Positions 168 through 19,153 of a stretch of 20,000 bases of DNA are shown in pieces. This DNA is from Xylographa opegraphella. Lineage: Eukaryota. The stretch covers positions 231,046 to 251,045 of the forward strand of contig JALDZX010000032.1 of NCBI GenBank assembly GCA_022813865.1, in the 5' to 3' direction. Every line of letters starts with the position of its first letter. The stretch's first letter is position 1. A program made the translations under genes and the position numbers. The notes under the pieces are model-generated. The model saw only the letters and a program-made list of their open reading frames with translations, made no database searches and was not told the origin of the DNA.

Positions 168-1017
168 TCACTCATCCACCACGCCCTCCACTCTCACAAA
201 CCTCCCGGGCTCCCTCAACAGCACCGGTGACCGATGAATCCCATACCCCCTCAATTGACCTCCCCACTCCCTCAGATCCACATCCACAAAGCCGGCATCC
301 ACCCACCCGTACCGCCGGTACAGGTTCCGCCCCCGCATCTGCGTCCCGATGTACACCAGCTCGCGCTCCAGCCCGAAGGTCTCGAACCCCCACGCCAGCA
401 AGGCGGTCCCGATCCCCTGCCGCTGGTACTCCGGCAGCACGTGCAGCGCCGACCAAGCTGGGAAGGACGGGGGTCTCGTTGTCAGCGAGGCAGGGACAGC
501 AAATGTAAAGCAGGAAGGTAACACCACCTCCCCTTCTTTCCAGAAAATAGAATGGAAAGAATAGAAAACAAAAACATCAGAGCAAAACTCCCAAAAACCT
601 ACCAACATGCCTCCTCCCCTCCACCGCACCCCACCTCGCCTCCGCCATGCGCGCATAATACATCCCACAAAACGCCGCATCCATCCCCTCGGGAAAGCCT
701 CGCTCCCCCCCATTCGACGGCGGCAGCTGCGGCGGCCGCTCCCCGCTATAGAACGTCAGACTCGCAAACGCAACCACCACCGGCCCGTCGCCCTCGTCGT
801 TCCGCAGAGTGGCCTTGAACACTCGCGTGGCCGGATCCTGCAGGCTGGCGGGGTAGGTCGCGCGGCAGAGGGCCCGCTTGGTGGCCATGGCGCGCTCGTG
901 GTTGGTCCCGAATTGGAAGACGTCGATGAGGTCGGCGGCCATGGCGCGGCTGATGGTGGTGGCGATGGCGTCCATGTCGCTGGGCGTGGCCATGGAGATG
1001 TGGATTGGGGGCGTCAT
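168..1017 (-). CDS. GNAT-family N-acetyltransferase (234 aa, 2 exons: 1017-603, 457-168)
   Basis: ATG at 1017 in CACCATG context. Intron 602-458 has GTAGGT donor, GCTGAC branch and CAG acceptor, and joins in frame as RRHV-AWSALHV. Acetyl-CoA motif A 'LHVLPEYQRQGIGTALL' and C-terminal 'GRNLYRRYGW' are typical of fungal GNATs. Confidence 0.88.
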
Positions 1018-1371
1018 GGTGGGTGGAGAGGAGGGAACGGCGTTCGACGGCGTTGATATGGGGAGATGGTGAGTGAAGAGTGAGGGAGAGTCTGCGGTGG
1101 TGATAGTGGGAAGGTATCCTGTCCCAGCATAGTGCTGATCCATCCAAACTGAAGATCATACGCTCAGAACGACCAAAATGATATTGATGGGTTCTCTTGT
1201 TCGTGTGTTTTTCAATAGATGATATCCTTTAGTCCATACAGGGACGAAACAACCCCTTGGTTTGACGATATTTTACTGTACATGTACATAGCGATGCCCA
1301 AAATGCTCAAAATGCTCATACGGATCACGGAAACGACCCTTCCTGATGTACACACAGCGTGCTATTTACCA

Positions 1372-5133: not shown

Positions 5134-7443
5134 TCAAGGCACGAAGTATGCGGCAATGGAAATAATAATCCATACCTCGATTAACAGGGCGCCTTGTATC
5201 CTTTGGAGCTTGTCAATAAGGTCCATAAGCTATTGGGGAGAGGAAAGATATACCATGTAGACTGTCCGTCCTGCATGATGTAGTTAACGATTAGTATAGA
5301 AGCAAACAGTGCTAGGACTTCGAATGCGCTGAAGACCAAGGTCATCTCGTCAATATCCATACCCCAAGCGATTATAAGTACCAACGGAATCACCATCAAC
5401 GAAGTCTGTATGCATTTCCCTGTGGTCAAGGCAAGACTGAGATCCACCTTGTCCTTGTAAGCCGTCACGATAGTTGTCGGATCGTTGCTCAATAGGGGAA
5501 GGATGACCAAGCCAACAAAGGTCTCGGACAGGCCAGCCTCGCTAAGGAGTCCATCGATGGAGTCCGTCGCAAACTGAGTGTTGAATGCAATGAAGACGGT
5601 TGACACAATGATTGTGGCTATTGCAACCCATATGCTTAATCGTGGAATTTCCTCGTCGTCGATGACATGGCTCCCGCTGATGCCAGTCGCCGCCGATTTC
5701 GCCCCAATTGCTGCGATCGCCCTGAGAGGTTTCACTCGATCCATCCGTCTTTTCTGTGTAGGTTGACTTCGTTTGTGTGGGCGAATCGGGTTGGTATATA
5801 GCTGAAAAAGCAGCCAGAGGCCGTAAGACAATAGCAGTACCACCCCTGTCCCGCGGGATTGAACCACAATATCTCTCCGGGAGGTAGTGATCAAAAAGTG
5901 GGAAACCGTGGGGACGATCAGACTCGTGGCTGCAAGTAAAAGTAGGGAACCCACGAGCTTGGCGATGCTGCTATCGAATCGTTGCTCGGCCCACTTGATA
6001 CCGCCAAGGAGAAAGCCAAGGCCGGTCATTAGGAGAAGGTTGGAGAGAATGCCACCGATCAAGGAGGTTTGTAGCACAGTGATCTGTCTAGTTTTCAGGA
6101 GAAAGATCGACGTGATCAGTTGAACAGCATTACTGTCTGAATCTCAAAACCGGTTCATAAAAGTCTGTAGAGTTTCGCATACCTGAAGGTCATGCTTATC
6201 AGCCCCTCCAGTAGTTCACCAACACGCAATGAGAAATCGTCGATGGCAAAAGCAAGGATCATAGCACTGGGTACGATAGCAAGGAAATTTACAGTGAAGA
6301 TAGCAATTGGATTGACATGGGTATAGTTGAGTACGAAACCAACGGGAATGAGTAAGATTAAGATATGAAACGATGAATTGAAGAGGAGGATCCTGGCTTG
6401 GTCGATGAGGGTGAAGTGATCAACCTCTCCAGCAGGAGTTACATCCTTCGTCGTCCCATCTGGTCTGAAAGCGATGAACCTTCGCTTTCTTGGAGAGATC
6501 TCATCAACCTCCTCGGATTCAGGGCCACCGCCGCCTCTCAGGCGCAGGACAAGGAAAATTGTGTCCCCCTAAATAAAGGTATTAGCAATTACATGGGGAC
6601 GGTCGCCGTGGTACGTCTCACTGGTTTGATCTTATAGGCATTCAAAGCTCGTTCTTGCGTAAAGTTAGCAATTTGATGATGTGGAAATGCTTTTAACGAA
6701 GATACCGTCCTCCAATTGCCTGCCTTCCCAGATGAGGCGCATCTGGTCAGGCGGTATCCCCTCTTTGTCCTGGATCCGAGTTTTCAGATTGTGAATAGTA
6801 AGCTTTCGCGCGCCGTGGATTGGGATAACCTTGCCCGTCAAGGTACGTATACGTAGTTCTATCTCGTTGTTATCGCTGATGAACGGCCGGTGCTCATGAA
6901 GCGACACTCGATCTTCATTCCCACTGGCAGACGCATCGGCATTAGCAGAATCCACAACCTCTTCGACCCTTGTCTTTAGACTTTTGTCTCTTCTGCGTAC
7001 TATTGCCCCTTTCATGTCATAGTCCCAAGGCATCGTGTCACCACGCCTCGGAACAAGATGTGCCAATTTATCTCGAACTTTCAATGGGGTCGTGGAAGCA
7101 TGCTTCAGACCAGTAGTTATAGTTTCTACGCCAGCATAATTCGCGGCTGTTTCGTTTTCTGTGACAGGCTCAGAGACAAGAGCCTCTTCTGCATCCAGTG
7201 ACTCCTGGGTGACAGGCACGACTGTAGAAGCCGGATCTGCAGAAGCCAACGCGGCGGCGTCGATTCCACCTGATTCGGCATCGTTATCGTTAGGCGCTTT
7301 TTTCCTCCGCAGAGCAAATGGGTTGAAGGCACTTTGGTTGTTGGGACCTCTCCAGGCGGCGGAGTATGCATTTCTCCGAATTGAGTCTGCGGTCTATGTC
7401 ATTGAGAGGCACAAGTCAATCGGTGTCATACATACATACACAT
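5134..7443 (-). CDS. Ubiquitin-domain / CAX (VCX1-like Ca2+/H+ exchanger family) fusion protein, 682 aa; exons 7443-7440, 7386-6706, 6653-6622, 6568-6183, 6132-5254, 5200-5134
   Basis: Five 50-53 nt GT-AG introns join with consistent phase, totalling 2049 nt = 683 codons. Ubiquitin domain is residues 177-252. CAX hallmarks: [100 protein letters not shown]...AYFVP*. The 4-nt first exon is the least certain part. Confidence 0.85.
6530..6862 (-). other. Embedded 76-aa ubiquitin domain ending LRLRGG, split by two introns (6705-6654, 6621-6569)
   Basis: Spliced translation [76 protein letters not shown] aligns without gaps to ubiquitin 1-76 (42/76 identical to yeast ubiquitin, manual count). Confidence 0.93.
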
Positions 7444-7721
7444 GTCTGAATCAGCAAAACATCTACAACATACGGAGCACCACGTTCTTGGAACCTGGTT
7501 GCGGGGCAGGGAAGCGCCGAGGTCGGACTCGGCAGAGGATATATAATACATACATATAATACATACAATAATACAATACAGGGTTAGGATACCATATAGC
7601 GCGAAGAGAGCAAGCGAGGTATCCCAAACAACGATTATCAGGCTTCGTGACCGAGTGTGTCGAACTCCGTGACGAGGACCGCAGTCCAGAAGATAGATCA
7701 GGGCGACTGCCATCGCTCGCT
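7444..7721. promoter_or_regulatory. Probable bidirectional promoter (278 bp between start codons) with an ATAC-rich low-complexity tract
   Basis: Divergent ATGs at 7443 (-) and 7722 (+). ATATAATACATAC x2 plus further ATAC/ATAAT units at about 7541-7580. Confidence 0.5.
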
Positions 7722-10418: not shown

Positions 10419-13400
10419 TTAGGCTCCGAAGGTGAGCTTCAACGCTATGCTGGGCTCTTCTTTGCCACGCCCATCGCGACGAGCATCACTCTTGCTAGCG
10501 CCACCTTCTTTGATGATCTGCTCCATGAACGCGCGCTGCTCAAGATTCATCTTCTCTACTATAGACCTGAAGGCGCCCTGATCAATGCTTGCCATGGACA
10601 TAAGTCGGGAGGCTGTATCATCATAAGAGTCTTTGCCTTCTCTCGAGGCTACATGTAGGACTAAGGGAACAACAAGAGTGTACAGAGTAGCGGCTTGTTC
10701 GTCTTGCAGCGTCGATGCGTAGGAGATGATTGTTGCCAGTATGAGACCCCTTGAGTTTTCGGGGTCTTGTTGGGCGTCGTCAATGAGGAATTGCAATAAC
10801 CGTGGGAGCAGATAAGCAGCAATGGCTTGGCCCACTTCTCCTTTCGGCTCGGTCAGCAGTAGGGATCTTATGCAATTGGCAGCCACTTTTCCTAGTCCAC
10901 GATCTTGTAGACAGTCGAGTAAGTCGTCGATGAGCTTCAACACTAATGGTTCATTAGGCAAGATGCCTTCGGAGCCATTGGTGAGAAGAATGACCGAAGC
11001 CATAAGAGTGTTCTTAGCACAAAGCAAACTCGCTTCTGATTCGCGTCTTTGAGCGTTGGCAAGAATGGAACGCAGCTTTTGGAGGCAACTTCTGAGCTGC
11101 TCGGTGATACTTGGGTTTTCCTCGACGTCTTCGGTGATAGTCTGAACAAACCGCCGGAAAATCGGTAAAACTTTTGGTACTACGGATGCCTGGCATACGC
11201 CCGTACCGAGAATAGTGGTAAAGATATGGATGATGCAGGCGCGCAGATCAGTACGGATGACAGAAGGAAAGATACCTGAGACGTCAACGAGGGCTTCGAG
11301 CGACAAGTCGAGCAATGCCACTCCTTCGGCAGGGATCTGATGTCGAATCGTTGTTGGTTTCTCTCCAAGATTGGGAAGAACACTGGCGATTACTAAAACT
11401 ATTATTCTTGTAAGCTCGAATAGCTGTTCGATATCGTCGGATAAGTGTTCGTCTCCCTCGGTGCCCTCCTTGACCGAAGGATGAGTCAGACATAGATTGC
11501 GAGTAATCTCTACAATAGCTCCCTGCACAGCAGAGCCTTCTGTTAAGGCTAGACGATCGAATAGCTCCATAGTCTCTGAGAAGACAACATCTTGGTAGAC
11601 AGCATGACCAGAGACGGAGGGACGAAGAATCCGTTTCAACGCCAGCAGAATCTCCAAGGTCTGATCATTTGTGTTCTGAGTATCCATGTCTGGACGCTTG
11701 ACTAAGGCCTCGAAAGATATGCCGTACAACATGAAAAAGAATGCCACTGGCTCGTTGCGATAGCTGATGTCGTCCCTATTGGACGCTGCACCACTACTTA
11801 CCGAGTTGCCTGTCTTACCGTCGAGGGCGTCAAACACGACATCGCCATCTTGGTCTATTAAGCTTGCAATAGCTTCCACAAGTTTAAGCCAAGAGTCCTG
11901 GTAAAACTGTAGCTATGTCAGTAGATGGTTCGGGTGAGGACAAATAATGTGCTACCTTGAGAAGAGTTTGCCGGTTGAACGCGGCATATATCGTGTCAAG
12001 GCTGTCTCGGCCGTTAATTCCCATGCTACTGGAGATATCCGGCTCGAAACGCAGACGAGCAAATTCTTGTAATGAAGATAGCCACAAAGGCGTTAGAGTG
12101 GCCGTATGTGATTTGACAACTTCCACCAAATAACCCTGTTCTGTGCTCGCAACCTGTAACTCAGCCCATGCTGATAACACAGACATCTTGACCATCGTTT
12201 TCGCATTGGAGCTGAGGCCTTTAAGATCTCCAATAGCTGGACTTCCCGTATCAACTAATTCAATCAGTAGCTGCATCACCTCACGATCATCAGAAGGCAT
12301 ACCGGTGAAGCTGTTCAAAGTAGACACTAATAGCTTGAGAATTCTACCCATACGATCAACGTCTTTGACTAGTCCGGCAGAAATGAAGGTTGCGCAGACG
12401 CTGATTGCCACTGAAGCAAGCTCAGGAGACGAGTCTGCTCCAAATGCTGGCGTAAGCGCAGAGCTGATCTGCGCTTGGTATTGCTCCAGCAAAAGTGCCT
12501 CCGAGAAATCCGGATCTGGAGTCTTCCCGAATATCTGATACGAAGGTTAGATATTAAGTCGATGTTCGCAACATGTGATCTGACACTTACTAGCAAAACC
12601 TGGTCTATCAGTTTGAGCCCCCGAACTCGAAGCTCTATGACTGAGGCTGTGGATGCGAGAAAAGCTATCCGGATAAGATCGGAAACTTTCTGTTGCATGG
12701 CAAGCCCGGCCAGGGAGCCAGGATGTGCTAGCATGTCTCGTGCAACCGTGCTAAGAATATCACTGAGACACTCCAGCGTAAATGCACGTACTTGCCATCT
12801 TAGCAGCTCCTGGCCGACAGAATTGTTATCCCCATCGTCATCCTTGCCATCTCCAAGTGCGAATCCGGCAACTTCCTCATCTTGGACATCTGGAGCAGCG
12901 GAAGGCAGTGTTTGTTCGGGACCTGGCGTAACTCCATTTGATTTTGTCACTGTTTTTGTCAACAGATTCTGGCAGCGATTGATCCACTGCGTTGTCTGGG
13001 TCAAAGTTGTCTGCTGAAGCCAGGCTTCCACAATGCTTCGAATTCCACCTTGCTCGTACGGGGTATCTAAAGACTTCCAGATCTGATCCTCAAAACCTTC
13101 AACAGCTACATTCATCGTCTGATCAGCGTTTCGCCGCATAAGATTATAAAGACCATCTGTAGCAATATCGCGAATGTCATTTCCGGGAAGGGCCAGACCT
13201 TCCCGCAACTGCTGTACGTATCTTGATAGTTCAACATAGGAAGGAGCATATAGATATATGTGCTCCCAGCAGCGCAGCGCTTGACCCCGAACCAATGTTT
13301 CTTCATCAGCATCAAATTGTCGTACGAGGGTTAGGATCAAGTCACGAGCCTTGCCCATGTCCTGCAGATCAGGCCCTAAAACATTAATCAGAGACGCTAT

Positions 13401-16400
13401 GCAGTGGGCGATGGCACCAGTGGTTGGCAATTCTAGTTCTGCATTAGATGTGCCGACGGCGTCCGCCTCTTCACAGTGGCTGTCAGATATCCACAGCTGC
13501 GCCAGCAAACCAAGGGTACTCGGAATATATCCGGAGAATGTAAGACCAGCAGATTCCGCCACTTCAGAAAGCGCCTCAATAGCCCAGAAGTGCACCGTAG
13601 GATGTGGATCGCTACACAAAGACATCAAAACACCATGGATTTGCCGTAGATGAAACCCTGCAGCCATACCGCCAACATTTGAATGTATGGATCCCAGTGC
13701 CATAGCACATCCAGCACGAGCATCGGGTTCTCGATTTGACACAATGGTTTCAATCAAATTGTTGACAACGGCGGTGGTAAATGCATTACCAGAGCCATTG
13801 CACATGCGTCCCAATGCTTCACAGCCAACGTTACGAACATATTTGTCGGGGTCTACTACGAGGCTCTACTTGGCAGTCAGTCCCATTACCCAAGTATGTC
13901 AATAGCGGTACGTAACCCTTAAAAGTTCGTCAAAATACTTTTCCACAGGAGGTGATTTTAAATCACCGGGAATGGCTAGAGTTTCACTCAATGTGACTTT
14001 CAAAGCTCCCAGAAGTGCCAAAGCAATATTGACCGTGACTGCTGCCTTCCTTCCCGGGTCCCTTTGAAGAATCTTTGCTCCAAGAAAAGTAGATAGTTGT
14101 TCGAGTATGCTCTCTTGAATTTTCGGGCTTTGTAGCGGGAAAGCCGCTGCAAACACCGAAATCGCCGAATTGACGACTTCTGTGGCAGGTGGATCCGGCA
14201 AATCCTCTGCGGTGTTGAAGTCCTGTGTGTCTATATAAACGGAATCGTGTTCCAAGGCACCGCATGTGGGAGATAGCAACTAGTAATGTCAGCGCATTCT
14301 GGAATGTACGTAGACTCTTAGCGTACTAGGCGTTCTAAGATGTATTCGACATCACTCCTATCATACCAAGATGACTGAACACCATCTGATTGCTCGCCTG
14401 CCAGTGGCTTGACGTGCAATCCTTTCATCAGACCTGATACTCCGTATCCAGAGTTGTCGGCCACATTCCAAATGCTATCGAAATTACTCGCCGAATTTGC
14501 TATGGACGTTCCCAGAGAGCCTTGTACATATCCTTCCGGTTCGGCAAAGCAAGATATGGCAAAGGCGACGATTCCTGACTGGGAGAGAGTCTCTCGGCTA
14601 GCGTGCGGACTTCTGATCGCAAGCCTGGTCAAGCATTGTAGTACCCTTCTTCTGACCATTTGTACGAGGTCTGGTAGTTGAAGCGAAGGAAGCATACGGG
14701 ACGACATTTCACTTTCGGCTCTGGTGGTTGGGATGTGGTCAAGAAACTCGATTGTGTTCTGCAGCATGGTCGCAATACGCTTGGACACGTCGGTGGTCAA
14801 CAAGCGTCCATTGAACTCGAGAAAAGCTAGAATTGATCCCAAAGCACATTCCCGAACGTGTACTAGATAGCTGATCTCAGCCATCTGTCGCTGCCCAGCA
14901 TTCTCTTTGGTCAGAGCTTTCGGAAGAGAGTTCCTCCACAGTAGTAAAAGCTGAGTCAAGTGAATCTTTACGAAGTTCGGTCCCAGTGACATGAGACCCC
15001 CTATCAGAATCCACGCTACTTGGACTTGCGTGCCCGAAATTCGAAGTTCAGTGTTGACACTCGACTTGAGCAACTCAGTTGCTTGCTGTAAGACTCGGGA
15101 ACTAATCTCCAACGAACTATACAAGGGCTGTAGACTTGATATGCTTATAACCGCTGCAAGACCGTTCGCATACCCGACACATTTTCTAGCCGAGAGGCGC
15201 CCTGTATTTAGCAATTCCAGTTCCCTGTTAAGAGAATCCATGGAGGTAGAGGCGCATTGGATAAGTTGTGATGGACAGGCCAGTGTGAAGAGACGAAGAC
15301 AGTAAGAAGCATGTATTTGCACTGTATAGCTTGGATGCTGCAGAACTTGCAAGAGAGCATCTCGACAGCTATCGGCTAGTGGACTGAATGCTGATCCGAG
15401 AGCTCTGATCAAGGAAGCTAAAACATCAAGAACACCTGTCAGAGTATTCTTCGTTGGCTCACTCTTTTCCTTGAGCACCCTAGGATAATTCTTCAGATAA
15501 TCGTTGATCAGTAGCTTTGCTGCAACAGTCTGAGCTGCTTCACCAAGTATAGATCGACCCACCACATCGGCCAGCAGCTTGTGTACAAACCGTCTGGTTA
15601 AGAGAAGTCGATATCGGTGGTGAGTTATCAAAGGACTGCTTAGGATGTCGACCAAAAAATGATCTGCTATGATAGCGTAATTCGCTTCTATGACACTAGG
15701 GTCTAGAGTCTGGAAAACCCTAGAGTAGCAGCTTATCACAGCAGCTCTGCCTCTATTACTGGTCGAAGAGCGTATATATTGAGCCGAAAGTTGCCGTAAC
15801 ATGTCTGGAAGCGTCAGATCTAGCTGTACAGAATTCTTCTTCCAAGTTGGAGACGCTAATCGTAAGGTGTCCGAGTCGTCTCCATCAGGCGCAGAAAGAT
15901 TCTGGCCTGGAAGTGGTTTCTTCGCTCTCTTGAACCGTGGTGTCTTGGGTATTTTCGGTGTCGACGTCAATGGAGTCATCGCCGAATACCCCTTGATCAT
16001 CAACGCTGCCAGACATGATGCAGAGGCTTGCCGCACAGCAGACACCGAGCTGTCCCCGGCTTTCCATATCGTGGTCTTCAATGACTCAAAGTCGTTGGTA
16101 TTGTTGAAGTGATCTGTTACTCGTACGAGTCGTTCGAGACAGACGCAAGCCTTGATCTGAACCAAAGCTCCTCGATCGCCTGATGCCGCAGTCCGAGCTT
16201 GCTTGAAGATCTCACGGGCTACAGACTCGTCAAGTGACCCCTGAACAGCTTCAACCACCCTGCAAAGGGATTGGAATATTGCCGCTCGAAGCGCGACATG
16301 GCCTGTTGCAGCTTTCAAGAGCTTGATGATGGCTGTACTAGTAAAACTAGACAGATTGACCGCCCCATCTCCTGCGACTCTATATATCTCCCCCAGACAA

Positions 16401-16822
16401 AGGACGGCCGCTTGCTTATTCCTGATTTCTTTCTCAATTTTACCTACATTCAAGGACTCTCCTAGCTCGGTGATCGTTTCGAAAAGGAGCTTCCGGTCTC
16501 CTTTTCCAAAAATATGTCTTAAACAGCGGCCGATAGCATTGCGAACCGGTCTCGTAGGTGGCGGAGTAGGAAGGTTGATGATCTGCAGTAGTTCTTTCTT
16601 CAGTTGGACTTGCTCCTCCTTGAGGACTTCAATCTTCAGCGATTTGATATGCTTCTCGGAATTTGTCACGAAGTTAAATAAGTACAAGGCCTGCTGCTCG
16701 GAGGGTAAGGAGTGAAGCTTCGTGATGTCAAGTTCAACCTCCTGCTTGACATGTTTGCTGGGTATACTCTTGGCCTCTCCGTTGCCATTTGAGACATGTG
16801 AAGACGACGGGAGATGGGACAT
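10419..16822 (-). CDS. LAA1: HEAT-repeat AP-1 accessory protein Laa1/HEATR5 family, 2050 aa; exons 16822-14327, 14279-13917, 13865-12591, 12534-12303, 12254-11956, 11906-10419
   Basis: Motifs ELDITKLHSLPSEQQ.LYL, GDRKLLFETI, QVQVAWILIGGLMSLGPNFVKIHL.QLLLLW, ARAGCAMALGSIHSNVGGMAAGFHL, FGKTPDPDF, LLEQYQAQISSALTPAF, FYQDSWLKLV, C-terminal EPSIALKL.F. Five 47-56 nt introns all in phase (6153 nt total). Confidence 0.93.
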
Positions 16823-16980
16823 GAATTACACCTTGACTGTGCTTCGTCGAAATGCATTTCACATCATTGTGAACACACGGCGGAACTTGGCTTTGGTTTG
16901 CGGAAAGCGCTCGCTTCCTCCACGCCCTAAATAAATTTTGGACCAGCAACTCTCGAAGCAACAGTCTGCAGAGTCTGCAC
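16823..16980. promoter_or_regulatory. Very short bidirectional promoter region (158 bp between start codons)
   Basis: Divergent ATGs at 16822 (-) and 16981 (+). Confidence 0.55.
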
Positions 16981-17885
16981 ATGATCGGACCACGACTACT
17001 GCATAGCTGTTGCTGCGCTCGTGCAAGTCTACGAAGGATATCCACCTCCACTTCTTTGCTTTCGGGACATAACCGGTGGTCCAAGATCAAGCATGATAAA
17101 GCCAAGGTCGACGGAGCAAAAACACGGCAGCGCTCTAATATCGCAAAGGAGCTGACCAGTGCCTCTAAAGGTAGGCAATGTAGTCGGCCTTAGTGTCTCC
17201 ATAGGCTCATGTTATTATAGCGGCAGGTGCAGATCCAACCACCAATACACGGCTTGCCGTTCTCATCGCAAGTGCCAAAAGGGCCGGCTTCCCAAAAGCT
17301 TCGATAGACACTGCCATAGCTCGAGGCCAGGGTATCTCCAGTAGCGGTGCGCCTCTCGAAAATGTCACCCTGGAGGTGATGCTACCCCATGCCGTTGCTG
17401 CTGTGATCGAATGTCAGACGGACTCGAAGGCACGACTGCTTCAGGATCTTCGAGAAATCTTCAAGTACTATGGCGCAAACACTACGCCCACCACGTATTT
17501 GTTTGAGAAGAAAGGGCGGATTGTGCTCGAATCATCGAGCGAGATTGAGGAGGAGGAGCTACTGGAACAAGGGATCGGTGCAGGGGCGCTGGATATCGAA
17601 CAAGACGACGACGGTAGCATTGTCGTTCTCACAGAACCAAACCGGATTACGGCAGTGGGAGAAGCACTTACGAGCGCTCTCGGACTTAAAATAGACAGGA
17701 CTGAATTTATCTGGGACCCGAAGGATGATACGAAGGTGGACATACCCACTCCGGAATATGCGGAGAAACTCAACAGGTTCACAAGTTAGTACTTGCTGCT
17801 GTATGGCTGTTGGTTAACTGATCAGTATGCAGGCAAACTAGAAGAAGATGCGAGCGTGCAAGGCATTTACCTCAATACCACTTGA
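16981..17885 (+). CDS. TACO1/YebC (DUF28) family mitochondrial protein, 268 aa; exons 16981-17170, 17221-17784, 17833-17885
   Basis: Presequence followed by the family signature SGHNRWSKIKHDK, then GADPTTNTRLA..IA.AKRAGFPKASIDTAIARGQG, IECQTDSKARL, YLFEKKGRI, GALDIE, and LEEDASVQGIYLN. Two canonical introns. Confidence 0.93.
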
Positions 17886-17960: not shown

Positions 17961-19153
17961 CTATTCACCCGTTTGTAGTCCCAAGATCGGTACCCTCATT
18001 CTCGTCAATGATACATTGTCATTAAGAAGTGTAATTTCATCGTCTAAATTGTCCCTACACTTCGCAATATCTCGAAGTGTATCACGACAACGCTCTACTG
18101 CTAATTCCTCACGACATTCTTCCAAGTGCAGCCTTAATATATCAAATGTTAATGAAAATTTTGTATCGCCGCCGTCCGTGGCATTGAGAGGGTAGAAGTC
18201 ACTGAGTTTCAAATCAAGTTCCGAAGTTGCATTATCTGGAACAAAATACTAAAACAAACCCGAATTAGTATATATTGTAATTAAGGAAAATAAAGGGAGT
18301 TAAACATACTGATCGAGTTCCTTGCTGCTTCGCCTGTCCGTTCAGTGGATCCCTTTTCCATATCTCGAGAAAAACGCTCATTTTATTGACCCAGACGAAA
18401 TTATTTATCTGTAGTGGGCCAAAGGTGCTGTTCGGATCTTTCGAAATAACCATGTCGGTATCAAGATCTTTGTAGTCAGGGAATCCAAGATTTTCAACAT
18501 CGTCGTCTTCAAATTTGCTGATAGGGGAACGGTATGCTGGATTCTCCTCCACTTTAATCAGTATAACAGTTATTATTTCTCTCGTTCCTTCTATCCACAA
18601 TTTCGCGTCATCAACAAGTTCTTCGTAGCTCTCAGAGACGCCAATTTCAACCACCGCGGTATATGAGGTTTTACGATCTTGTCTTCTGTATTTGAACAGA
18701 ACATCAGGTTCCTCAGTACTATTTTCGTAAATCCCTCTAAAGGCGCCTACTCTTTGACTCCCAACAACAACGAGGTGCGCCGCTATTTCAGATCGAAGGT
18801 TTTGCCTAGCAGCAAAGCCGCTTTCGATGAGAGAGGCCGCAAAATTGTCGTGGACAGGCGATGGCATCCACTGGATTACAGCAGTGGAGTTTTGAGAGTT
18901 ATAGGACAAGGACGGCGAGCTGGTACATATCACATTAGCTATCATAATCTTCATATCAGATATTGATCACATACTACAAATCGTTTCCATCATCATCAAG
19001 AATTTCATTCAGCTTTTGAAATTCGATCATTGATACGTGTAGTCTTTCCACATTACGCAAAGGTTTGAACCTGAGATCTCTGCGTTGCTTAGCGGCGAGA
19101 ACGCTCTCTTTAATTCTAGCCTTGTAGATAATAAACTCTGAGGGTATTAACAT
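17961..19153 (-). CDS. Fungal PD-(D/E)XK restriction-endonuclease-fold (Uma2/CR-REase-like) protein, 358 aa from ATG 19153; exons 19153-18975, 18919-18310, 18248-17961; may be a 5'-disrupted longer gene
   Basis: MPSPVHD ... EPD ... [23 protein letters not shown] ... VILIKVEE pattern typical of Pezizomycotina REase-fold families. Two GTATGT...CTAAT...YAG introns in phase. The frame continues upstream past a single TAA (19192-19190) to ATG 19342. Confidence 0.65.

Follow-up and report, generated by a model that had tools for sequence, protein, structure and literature searches.

Several precursors that carry a ubiquitin-like domain (UBL) are matured by proteolysis. FAU, SDE2 and TUG are cut at a diglycine according to the accessible part of PMC8013793, and the available text of PMC13572447 assigns the cleavage of SDE2, the UBL of which is less than 20% identical to ubiquitin, to USP5 and that of FUBI to USP16. 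Cleavage of TUG is internal and its N-terminal piece becomes a modifier (accessible part of PMC9556833). As far as the available portions of the sources go, the precursors named as substrates of deubiquitinases (DUBs), SDE2, FAU, TUG and USP1, are soluble proteins. Here a stretch of 20,000 nucleotides of the Xylographa opegraphella genome (assembly GCA_022813865.1, contig JALDZX010000032.1, positions 231,046 to 251,045), hereafter the window, was analyzed. It contains a gene that joins a divergent UBL with an LRLRGG tail to a membrane protein of the CAX cation exchanger fold; the gene is known here from DNA alone, both its exon/intron structure and its protein being predicted. The comparisons below point to a real and conserved fusion, undescribed in the literature searched, that appears to place a UBL-diglycine precursor on a CAX-fold protein lacking the sequence features of a functional CAX.

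The gene runs along the minus strand from 7443 to 5134 and was modelled as six joined exons that form one frame of 682 amino acids. The five predicted introns measure 53, 52, 53, 50 and 53 nt in gene order and have GT..AG ends throughout (Table 1). In the original prediction the junction lay inside one open exon and this was borne out, as exon 6568-6183 encodes LRLRGG, then a linker of 43 residues and then the first CAX helices with no stop. The intact diglycine with glycine instead of proline after G76 was likewise recovered, at residue 252, which agrees with the anticipated cytosolic head of about 252 residues, and no hydrophobic segment lies ahead of residue 253. The proposed Pfam check returned PF00240 in exon 2 (E=6e-13) and PF01699 in exon 5 (E=1e-20; two stretches). 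Removal of introns 6705-6654 (52 nt) and 6621-6569 (53 nt), which have GT..AG ends and branch-point-like motifs, does restore a gap-free domain of 76 residues as had been claimed; that this domain is ubiquitin did not hold, since it is a 55%-identical UBL without K48 and K63. Exon 2 is 63% identical to its Xylographa pallens counterpart over 191 columns.

Other readings of the locus were tried. A stand-alone CAX start after the UBL was rejected because the first methionine past the diglycine is residue 342, inside helix M2. Three other acceptors for intron 4 (models A-C) led to early stops, and a splice that skips the UBL, which would need an intron of several hundred bases as opposed to the 50-53 nt of the five modelled, was not supported.

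The fusion is real and is a single gene rather than an artefact of assembly or splicing, as the same architecture occurs in six other sequences, one of which holds it in an intron-free open reading frame (ORF). These sequences were collected as top-ranked matches, not as a census. A search with the junction exon gave one protein match among 676 candidates, MMC27_003071 of X. pallens (P0002), at 77% over the exon; this is also the nearest named relative, with 85% identity in the membrane part. When P0002 was used as the query (120 of 214 matches listed), two more proteins with both Pfam domains were obtained, P0003 and P0004, the latter representing a 12-member cluster. A metagenome scan yielded 10 loci, of which one (L001) has the UBL. 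In L001 the CAX tail motif, the entire 76-residue UBL and helices M1-M2 lie in a single intron-free ORF, and the junction therefore needs no splice assumption. P0152 and P0129 were added by a profile search (50% representatives, best 150 listed) combined with a local UBL profile run over 265 fetched proteins, P0129 being from Thozetella, a Sordariomycete. This brings the fusions to seven in all, so that the domain pair sought among related sequences was found in six other fungal sequences. The fused subclade spans a Lecanoromycete and a Sordariomycete and hence at least two fungal classes. Between distant fusion pairs the tails are 22-36% identical and the membrane parts 61-63%. With an alignment of five fusions as query, a homolog search recovered P0129 alone out of 8000 candidates and was thus uninformative on further fusions. 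The Thozetella protein is annotated as 'ubiquitin-domain-containing protein', meaning that the architecture is already present in public annotations, where it has gone unremarked.

Residues 2-52 of the UBL align without gaps to ubiquitin in the PDB, and 42 of the 76 residues are identical overall (hand count). The domain keeps its 76-residue length, the L8/I44/V70 patch and the LRLRGG tail, together with I36, R42, R72 and R74 and the lysines K11, K27 and K33, while K48R, K63P and H68F set it apart. It thus has neither the near-invariant sequence of canonical ubiquitin nor the K48 and K63 used for chain building, and R72 stands where NEDD8/Rub1 has alanine. Judged from its sequence, the domain is a divergent UBL derived from ubiquitin and not ubiquitin proper. 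Its exact length is kept in the window, P0003 and L001. Among the five closest fusions pairwise identity reaches 93% (84/90) at UBL positions 30-44 and 85% (68/80) at 69-76, as opposed to only 26% (31/118) at 13-29, a comparison made within the fusions. Fourfold sites are saturated between the window and L001, being the same in 31/118 in the membrane part and 0/5 in the UBL tail, and the retention of residues in spite of this indicates selection on the protein; positions 30-44 and 69-76 are, on these substitution patterns, selectively conserved. Positions 30-44 and 71-76 presumably include surface residues contacted by USP enzymes and E1. The diglycine is kept in six of the seven fusions and is followed by glycine every time. 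N-myristoylation of the glycine exposed by cleavage was also considered. Its consensus has serine at the fifth position, and serine is found there in 2/6 only (window and P0003). P0129, with a UBL that has neither the diglycine nor I44, offers a natural uncleavable control.

The window protein begins with R/K..A..W..NPF, a motif with which many unfused CAX proteins of Pezizomycotina also begin, and the micro-exon of ATG plus one base with the first intron behind it stands at the same place in the window, in the fused L001 and in the unfused L002 and L003. As the gene thus opens with the N-terminal motif and the first intron of a CAX, the UBL was inserted within the native CAX N-terminal tail, and the original prediction of a ubiquitin fused ahead of a CAX had to be given up. 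Introns 4 and 5 are common to the window and L001; the two UBL introns are not found in L001. GC-AG introns were seen at L001:3046-3101, L002:3582 and L003:108 where the window or other relatives have GT-AG.

Phylogenetic trees were built from the membrane part only. At least 75% of this part was covered in 243 of the 267 rows, and these were divided into 177 canonical rows, 51 rows without both glutamate motifs (degenerate) and 15 mixed rows that were left out. A quick tree of the 51 degenerate and 20 canonical rows agrees with a careful tree of 42 rows, in which the degenerate rows form one clade with a support of 100/100. All seven fusions fall within one nine-row clade (support 94/91, just under the starred level), the other two rows of which, P0010 and P0156, are truncated ahead of the UBL position. 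The UBL is absent from all 177 canonical rows and from 22 unfused degenerate rows with tails of at least 60 residues, the other 22 unfused rows being too short to tell. A single UBL insertion is the simplest reading, and the best explanation is one old gene that arose by insertion into a Pezizomycotina CAX paralog with an already rewired Ca2+ site. Separately, the tail of L002 (2872-3588), an unfused degenerate CAX, is 48% identical to that of the canonical Zopfia CAX P0049 over 258 columns and shares long identical runs with it within the first 80 residues, though the membrane parts fall in separate clades; either the tail is strongly constrained or the paralogs have exchanged tails.

The membrane part has the CAX fold, with two Na_Ca_ex repeats (PF01699) and PDB matches to 4K1C, 9VSA/C and 4KJR. 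Relatives pass the TIGR00378 cut-off of 211.15 bits (P0002 218.5, P0003 233.3; canonical rows 373-375), and exon 5 of the window, a part only, scores 168 bits. The structure was modelled on the relative P0003 rather than on the window protein. The AlphaFold2 model (68 sequences) has a mean pLDDT of 74, with 91-97 in the UBL and values below 50 at residues 272-295, which are unstructured. Foldseek placed Vcx1, AtCAX1 and YfkE at the top of its matches to this model with a TM-score to target of 0.79-0.89, and the modelled UBL matches ubiquitin at 0.6-1.5 Å in several entries. P0129 was folded on five sequences with a mean pLDDT of 38, unusable outside the UBL. Matches in the ESM Atlas were all below 0.9 and serve as leads only, P0003 leading to plain exchanger clusters and exon 2 to small UBL clusters.

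The ion site was compared with that of Vcx1 on 4K1C, in which chain numbering is offset by five, and residues were counted in one alignment with 60 of the 177 canonical rows. E106 and E302 are key for Ca2+ transport, with G102, N103, G298 and S325 as partners (accessible part of PMC10531375). The alpha-1 GNxxE motif is broken in all seven fusions, where glutamine replaces E106, and in 39/44 unfused degenerate rows, as opposed to glutamate in 60/60 canonical rows. In the alpha-2 GNxxEH motif a three-residue deletion removes E302 (H303 is also lost) and leaves D-P in the window; this gap is present in 7/7 fusions and 43/44 unfused degenerate rows while E302 is kept in 60/60 canonical rows. S325 is lysine in 7/7 fusions, lysine or arginine in 39/44 unfused degenerate rows and serine in 60/60 canonical rows, and the window also has G102S and G298S. 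Canonical Ca2+/H+ exchange is unlikely on account of E106Q, the loss of E302 and S325K, and the membrane part is very probably not a canonical Ca2+/H+ antiporter. The CAX exchanger with a regulatory autoinhibitory tail that had been envisaged is thus unlikely in its canonical form, the alpha-repeat glutamates being lost and lysine standing at S325. This lysine probably occupies the cation site, paired with the alpha-2 aspartate, and conservation of a basic residue at a cation-site position points to a site that was rebuilt rather than decayed. The membrane part would then either carry another solute or act as a partner of canonical CAX without transporting anything itself.

The degenerate clade amounts to 51 of the 243 well-covered rows (P0005-P0010, P0015, P0028, P0051, P0116, many of P0122-P0250; L002-L010) and has named members in Lophium, Lindgomyces, Lophiotrema, Trichoglossum, Aspergillus sclerotiicarbonarius and Botryotinia. 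Databases label its members as ordinary calcium exchangers, and no description of the clade was found in the literature searched.

The pattern of conservation favours the UBL as a built-in processing site at which a USP-type DUB would cut after G76, a reading that we consider somewhat better than even. Both options raised in the original prediction, cleavage by a DUB and a tethered signal, are supported as live ones; retention of the diglycine in six of the seven fusions favours cleavage. The residue that follows is glycine and not proline, and a low-confidence coil comes after the UBL in the P0003 model. The N-terminus of Vcx1 is cytosolic (accessible part of PMC9407949), and by this topology the cut site would be cytosolic and accessible. 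In the proposed mechanism a cross-reactive USP-type DUB would cut after G76, free a soluble head of 252 residues and leave a membrane protein of 430 residues that starts with glycine, keeps the 43-residue linker and has lost the tail motif. Such a cut would mature or switch the protein by taking off the tail with the CAX N-terminal motif, and removal of this tail would in turn alter sorting, partners or lifetime. The explanation as a whole, that is a DUB cut after G76 that removes the head, is the best we have and is given roughly an even chance. A wider version, in which a CAX-fold UBL precursor matured by DUBs yields a pseudo-exchanger or carrier of a new substrate with a cation-site lysine while the head acts as a lineage-specific ubiquitin-like modifier or signal, is put forward tentatively and with considerable doubt.

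Several observations weigh against cleavage as the conserved role of the domain, or against the history and the ion site proposed with it. Both the diglycine and I44 are lost in P0129 (UBL residues 127-202), and P0152 has T72 and P0004 has H74. In the window F45W, A46E, K48R and H68F adjoin the I44 patch, and a DUB might bind less well on account of these changes. Perhaps, too, such blocks are simply where a domain derived from ubiquitin always changes most slowly. N103, S132, N299 and Q328 are kept in the window, as is an aspartate in alpha-2 that could partly replace E302. Since support for the nine-row clade falls just short of the starred level, two insertions, one per subclade, may have taken place instead. 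The X. pallens gene model (P0002 residues 206-245) is without 36 UBL residues and stays below the Pfam ubiquitin cut-off. The gap ends about where intron 2 of the window ends and so points to an incorrectly annotated donor, although it could be a real loss; owing to gapped models of this kind fusions may be under-counted in databases.

The main rival to cleavage, which we consider unlikely, is a UBL that remains in place, or is removed slowly, and mimics mono-ubiquitin permanently as a tag by which ubiquitin receptors such as ESCRT-0 would sort or dock the protein. In yeast, membrane proteins can be routed to multivesicular bodies by ubiquitin fused in frame; no paper with this wording was among the 10 of 162 search matches listed. 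A tag of this kind could send the pseudo-exchanger together with canonical CAX partners to the vacuole lumen or to turnover, and it is consistent with L8 in 6/7, I44 in 5/6 and V70 in 6/7 fusions, with a UBL kept in P0129 without its diglycine, and with the homo- and hetero-oligomers that CAX proteins form (accessible part of PMC13591097). A tag does not need the diglycine, however, which is kept despite saturated synonymous sites; moreover P0129 lost I44 as well, and the residues around I44 (45-48, 68) vary more than the tail-side block. The UBL might instead be a tolerated passenger in slow decay with the glycines persisting as a flexible linker. Just five other fusions among 265 fetched proteins and one among 10 loci, 22 long-tailed degenerate relatives without the UBL, the gapped X. 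pallens model and the lost UBL tail of P0129 would all fit such decay, but blocks of 93% and 85% as opposed to 26% between them under synonymous saturation, and the exact length of 76 residues in the window, P0003 and L001, make it improbable.

It is also conceivable, with a rather small probability, that cleavage takes place mainly in order to free the head as an N-terminally extended modifier, activated by E1 and conjugated like TUGUL. The window UBL has R42, R72, R74 and GG, which we take to have a role in E1 recognition. TUG itself is a precedent (accessible part of PMC9556833), but conservation of the head ahead of its UBL is poor, with 22-36% identity between distant fusions, and R72 or R74 is altered in P0152 and P0004. 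An ordinary Ca2+/H+ exchanger that its tail keeps inactive until a DUB takes this tail away would agree with the CAX fold (Foldseek matches of the P0003 model to Vcx1, AtCAX1 and YfkE), with relatives above the TIGR00378 cut-off and with the activation of plant CAX1 transport by tail removal (accessible part of PMC10531375). Its chance is slight in view of E106Q, the loss of E302 and H303, S325K, G102S and G298S, and a cut after G76 would leave the 43-residue linker by the membrane, a length no shorter than that of the autoinhibitory region in plants (36 residues). A misassembly, or the reading of two neighbouring genes as a single one, has next to no probability given the same junction in six independent sequences, its position within one exon in L001, the first methionine after the diglycine at residue 342 in M2, and a 5' end that carries both the CAX motif and its intron. 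Among the sequencing runs matched to this stretch none was listed as RNA, and the one DNA run may itself be the source of the window.

Table 1. Predicted features of the UBL-CAX gene, in gene order (positions in the window).
Feature	Position	Strand	Supporting observation
Exon 1, micro-exon of start codon plus one base	7440..7443	-	ATG+1 and intron at the same place in L001 (fused) and in L002, L003 (unfused); X. pallens matching residues at Met29
Intron 1, 53 nt, GT..AG	7387..7439	-	Common to unfused CAX genes
Exon 2: R/K..A..W..NPF motif of the CAX N-terminus (NPF at residue 23), then hydrophilic tail, then UBL residues 1-52 from 6862	6706..7386	-	Motif in unfused CAX; PF00240; PDB ubiquitin alignment
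Intron 2, 52 nt, within UBL; on retention the protein ends at 241 aa	6654..6705	-	Not present in L001
Exon 3: UBL residues 53-63	6622..6653	-	Gap-free 76-residue domain restored, collinear with P0003 and L001
Intron 3, 53 nt, within UBL; on retention the protein ends at 249 aa	6569..6621	-	
Exon 4: UBL residues 64-76, linker, CAX helices M1-M2 up to alpha-1	6183..6568	-	Open frame
LRLRGG tail; predicted scissile bond after G76 = residue 252 (6532-6530), Gly next	6530..6547	-	Diglycine in 6/7 fusions
Intron 4, 50 nt	6133..6182	-	Same position and phase in L001; donor at same place in L002, L003
Exon 5: CAX body, rewired ion site	5254..6132	-	Q at Vcx1 E106 (6122-6120); D after 3-residue alpha-2 deletion (5483-5481); K at Vcx1 S325 (5417-5415)
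Intron 5, 53 nt	5201..5253	-	Same position in L001
Exon 6: last transmembrane helix and stop codon	5134..5200	-	Agrees with X. pallens P0002 C-terminus

The fusion gene is flanked by a Phosphodiest-family gene, presumably GPI13/PIG-O-like, on one side and by a divergent CCDC90-like gene on the other. The latter starts head-to-head with the fusion gene at a distance of about 280 bases (7443-7720), which leaves little space for extra upstream exons and suggests a shared promoter region. Elsewhere in the window a long multi-exon HEAT-repeat-like gene (10419-16825, minus strand), which we take to be Laa1/HEATR5-like, gave no Pfam match on its 835-aa exon; together with a TACO1/YebC gene (17205-17789, plus strand) and a GNAT acetyltransferase (168-1155, minus strand) it looks ordinary. 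A 233-aa ORF at 18265-18966 (minus strand), in a stretch of low GC (39-44% from 18000 on), has no Pfam or NCBIfam match; its PD..VEIG..S pattern may recall PD-(D/E)XK nuclease-like proteins.

No description of a UBL-CAX fusion, including the combination of PF01699 and PF00240, was found in the literature searched, which covered few subscription papers and no InterPro or MycoCosm architectures, and the word 'ubiquitin' does not occur in the available parts of two fungal calcium-transport reviews. As the fusion recurs in several other fungi, DUBs may cut a membrane protein in a manner for which that literature gave no example. If true, DUB cleavage would be a switch through which the handling of ions at the vacuole is linked to the ubiquitin system in filamentous and lichen fungi, and the logic of UBL precursors would be extended to polytopic membrane proteins by a protein of transporter fold in which an internal ubiquitin cut site is conserved. 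The degenerate clade could furthermore serve as natural material for the study of transport-independent CAX functions, a question raised for plant CAX1 in the accessible part of PMC13591097.

Among known systems, the canonical long-tailed CAX proteins of Pezizomycotina (Histoplasma P0011, Zopfia P0049) share the R/K..A..W..NPF motif and about 40% identity in the membrane part with the window protein; they differ in that they keep GNAVELI and GNAAEH and have no UBL in 177 rows. Vcx1 (4K1C), CAX1 (9VSA) and YfkE (4KJS) are alike in fold, in the two PF01699 repeats, in N103, S132, N299 and Q328 and in a long cytosolic N-terminal tail, whereas the window protein has both GNxxE motifs broken, H303 lost, lysine at S325 and a UBL in the tail. 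Rad23/Dsk2, Dsc3 and MUB use an uncleaved UBL as a docking surface, some of them on membrane proteins, and to our knowledge are generally without a processable diglycine, unlike six of the seven fusions described here. Polyubiquitin, Ub-eL40 and Ub-eS31 have in common with the window gene a 76-residue domain, LRLRGG and an in-frame protein after it. The window UBL differs from these ubiquitin precursors in its 42/76 identity, K48R and K63P, is internal (176 residues from the start) and cannot feed the free ubiquitin pool. The closest likeness in layout is to SDE2/Sde2, FAU (FUBI-eS30) and TUG, which in the available portions of the sources have a divergent UBL ending in diglycine and a functional C-terminal part, with TUG also sharing the internal site and the N-terminally extended released piece. 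The window UBL is much nearer to ubiquitin (55%) than FUBI (about 36-38%) or SDE2 (<20%), and while SDE2, FAU and TUG are soluble, the C-terminal product here is a predicted polytopic membrane protein.

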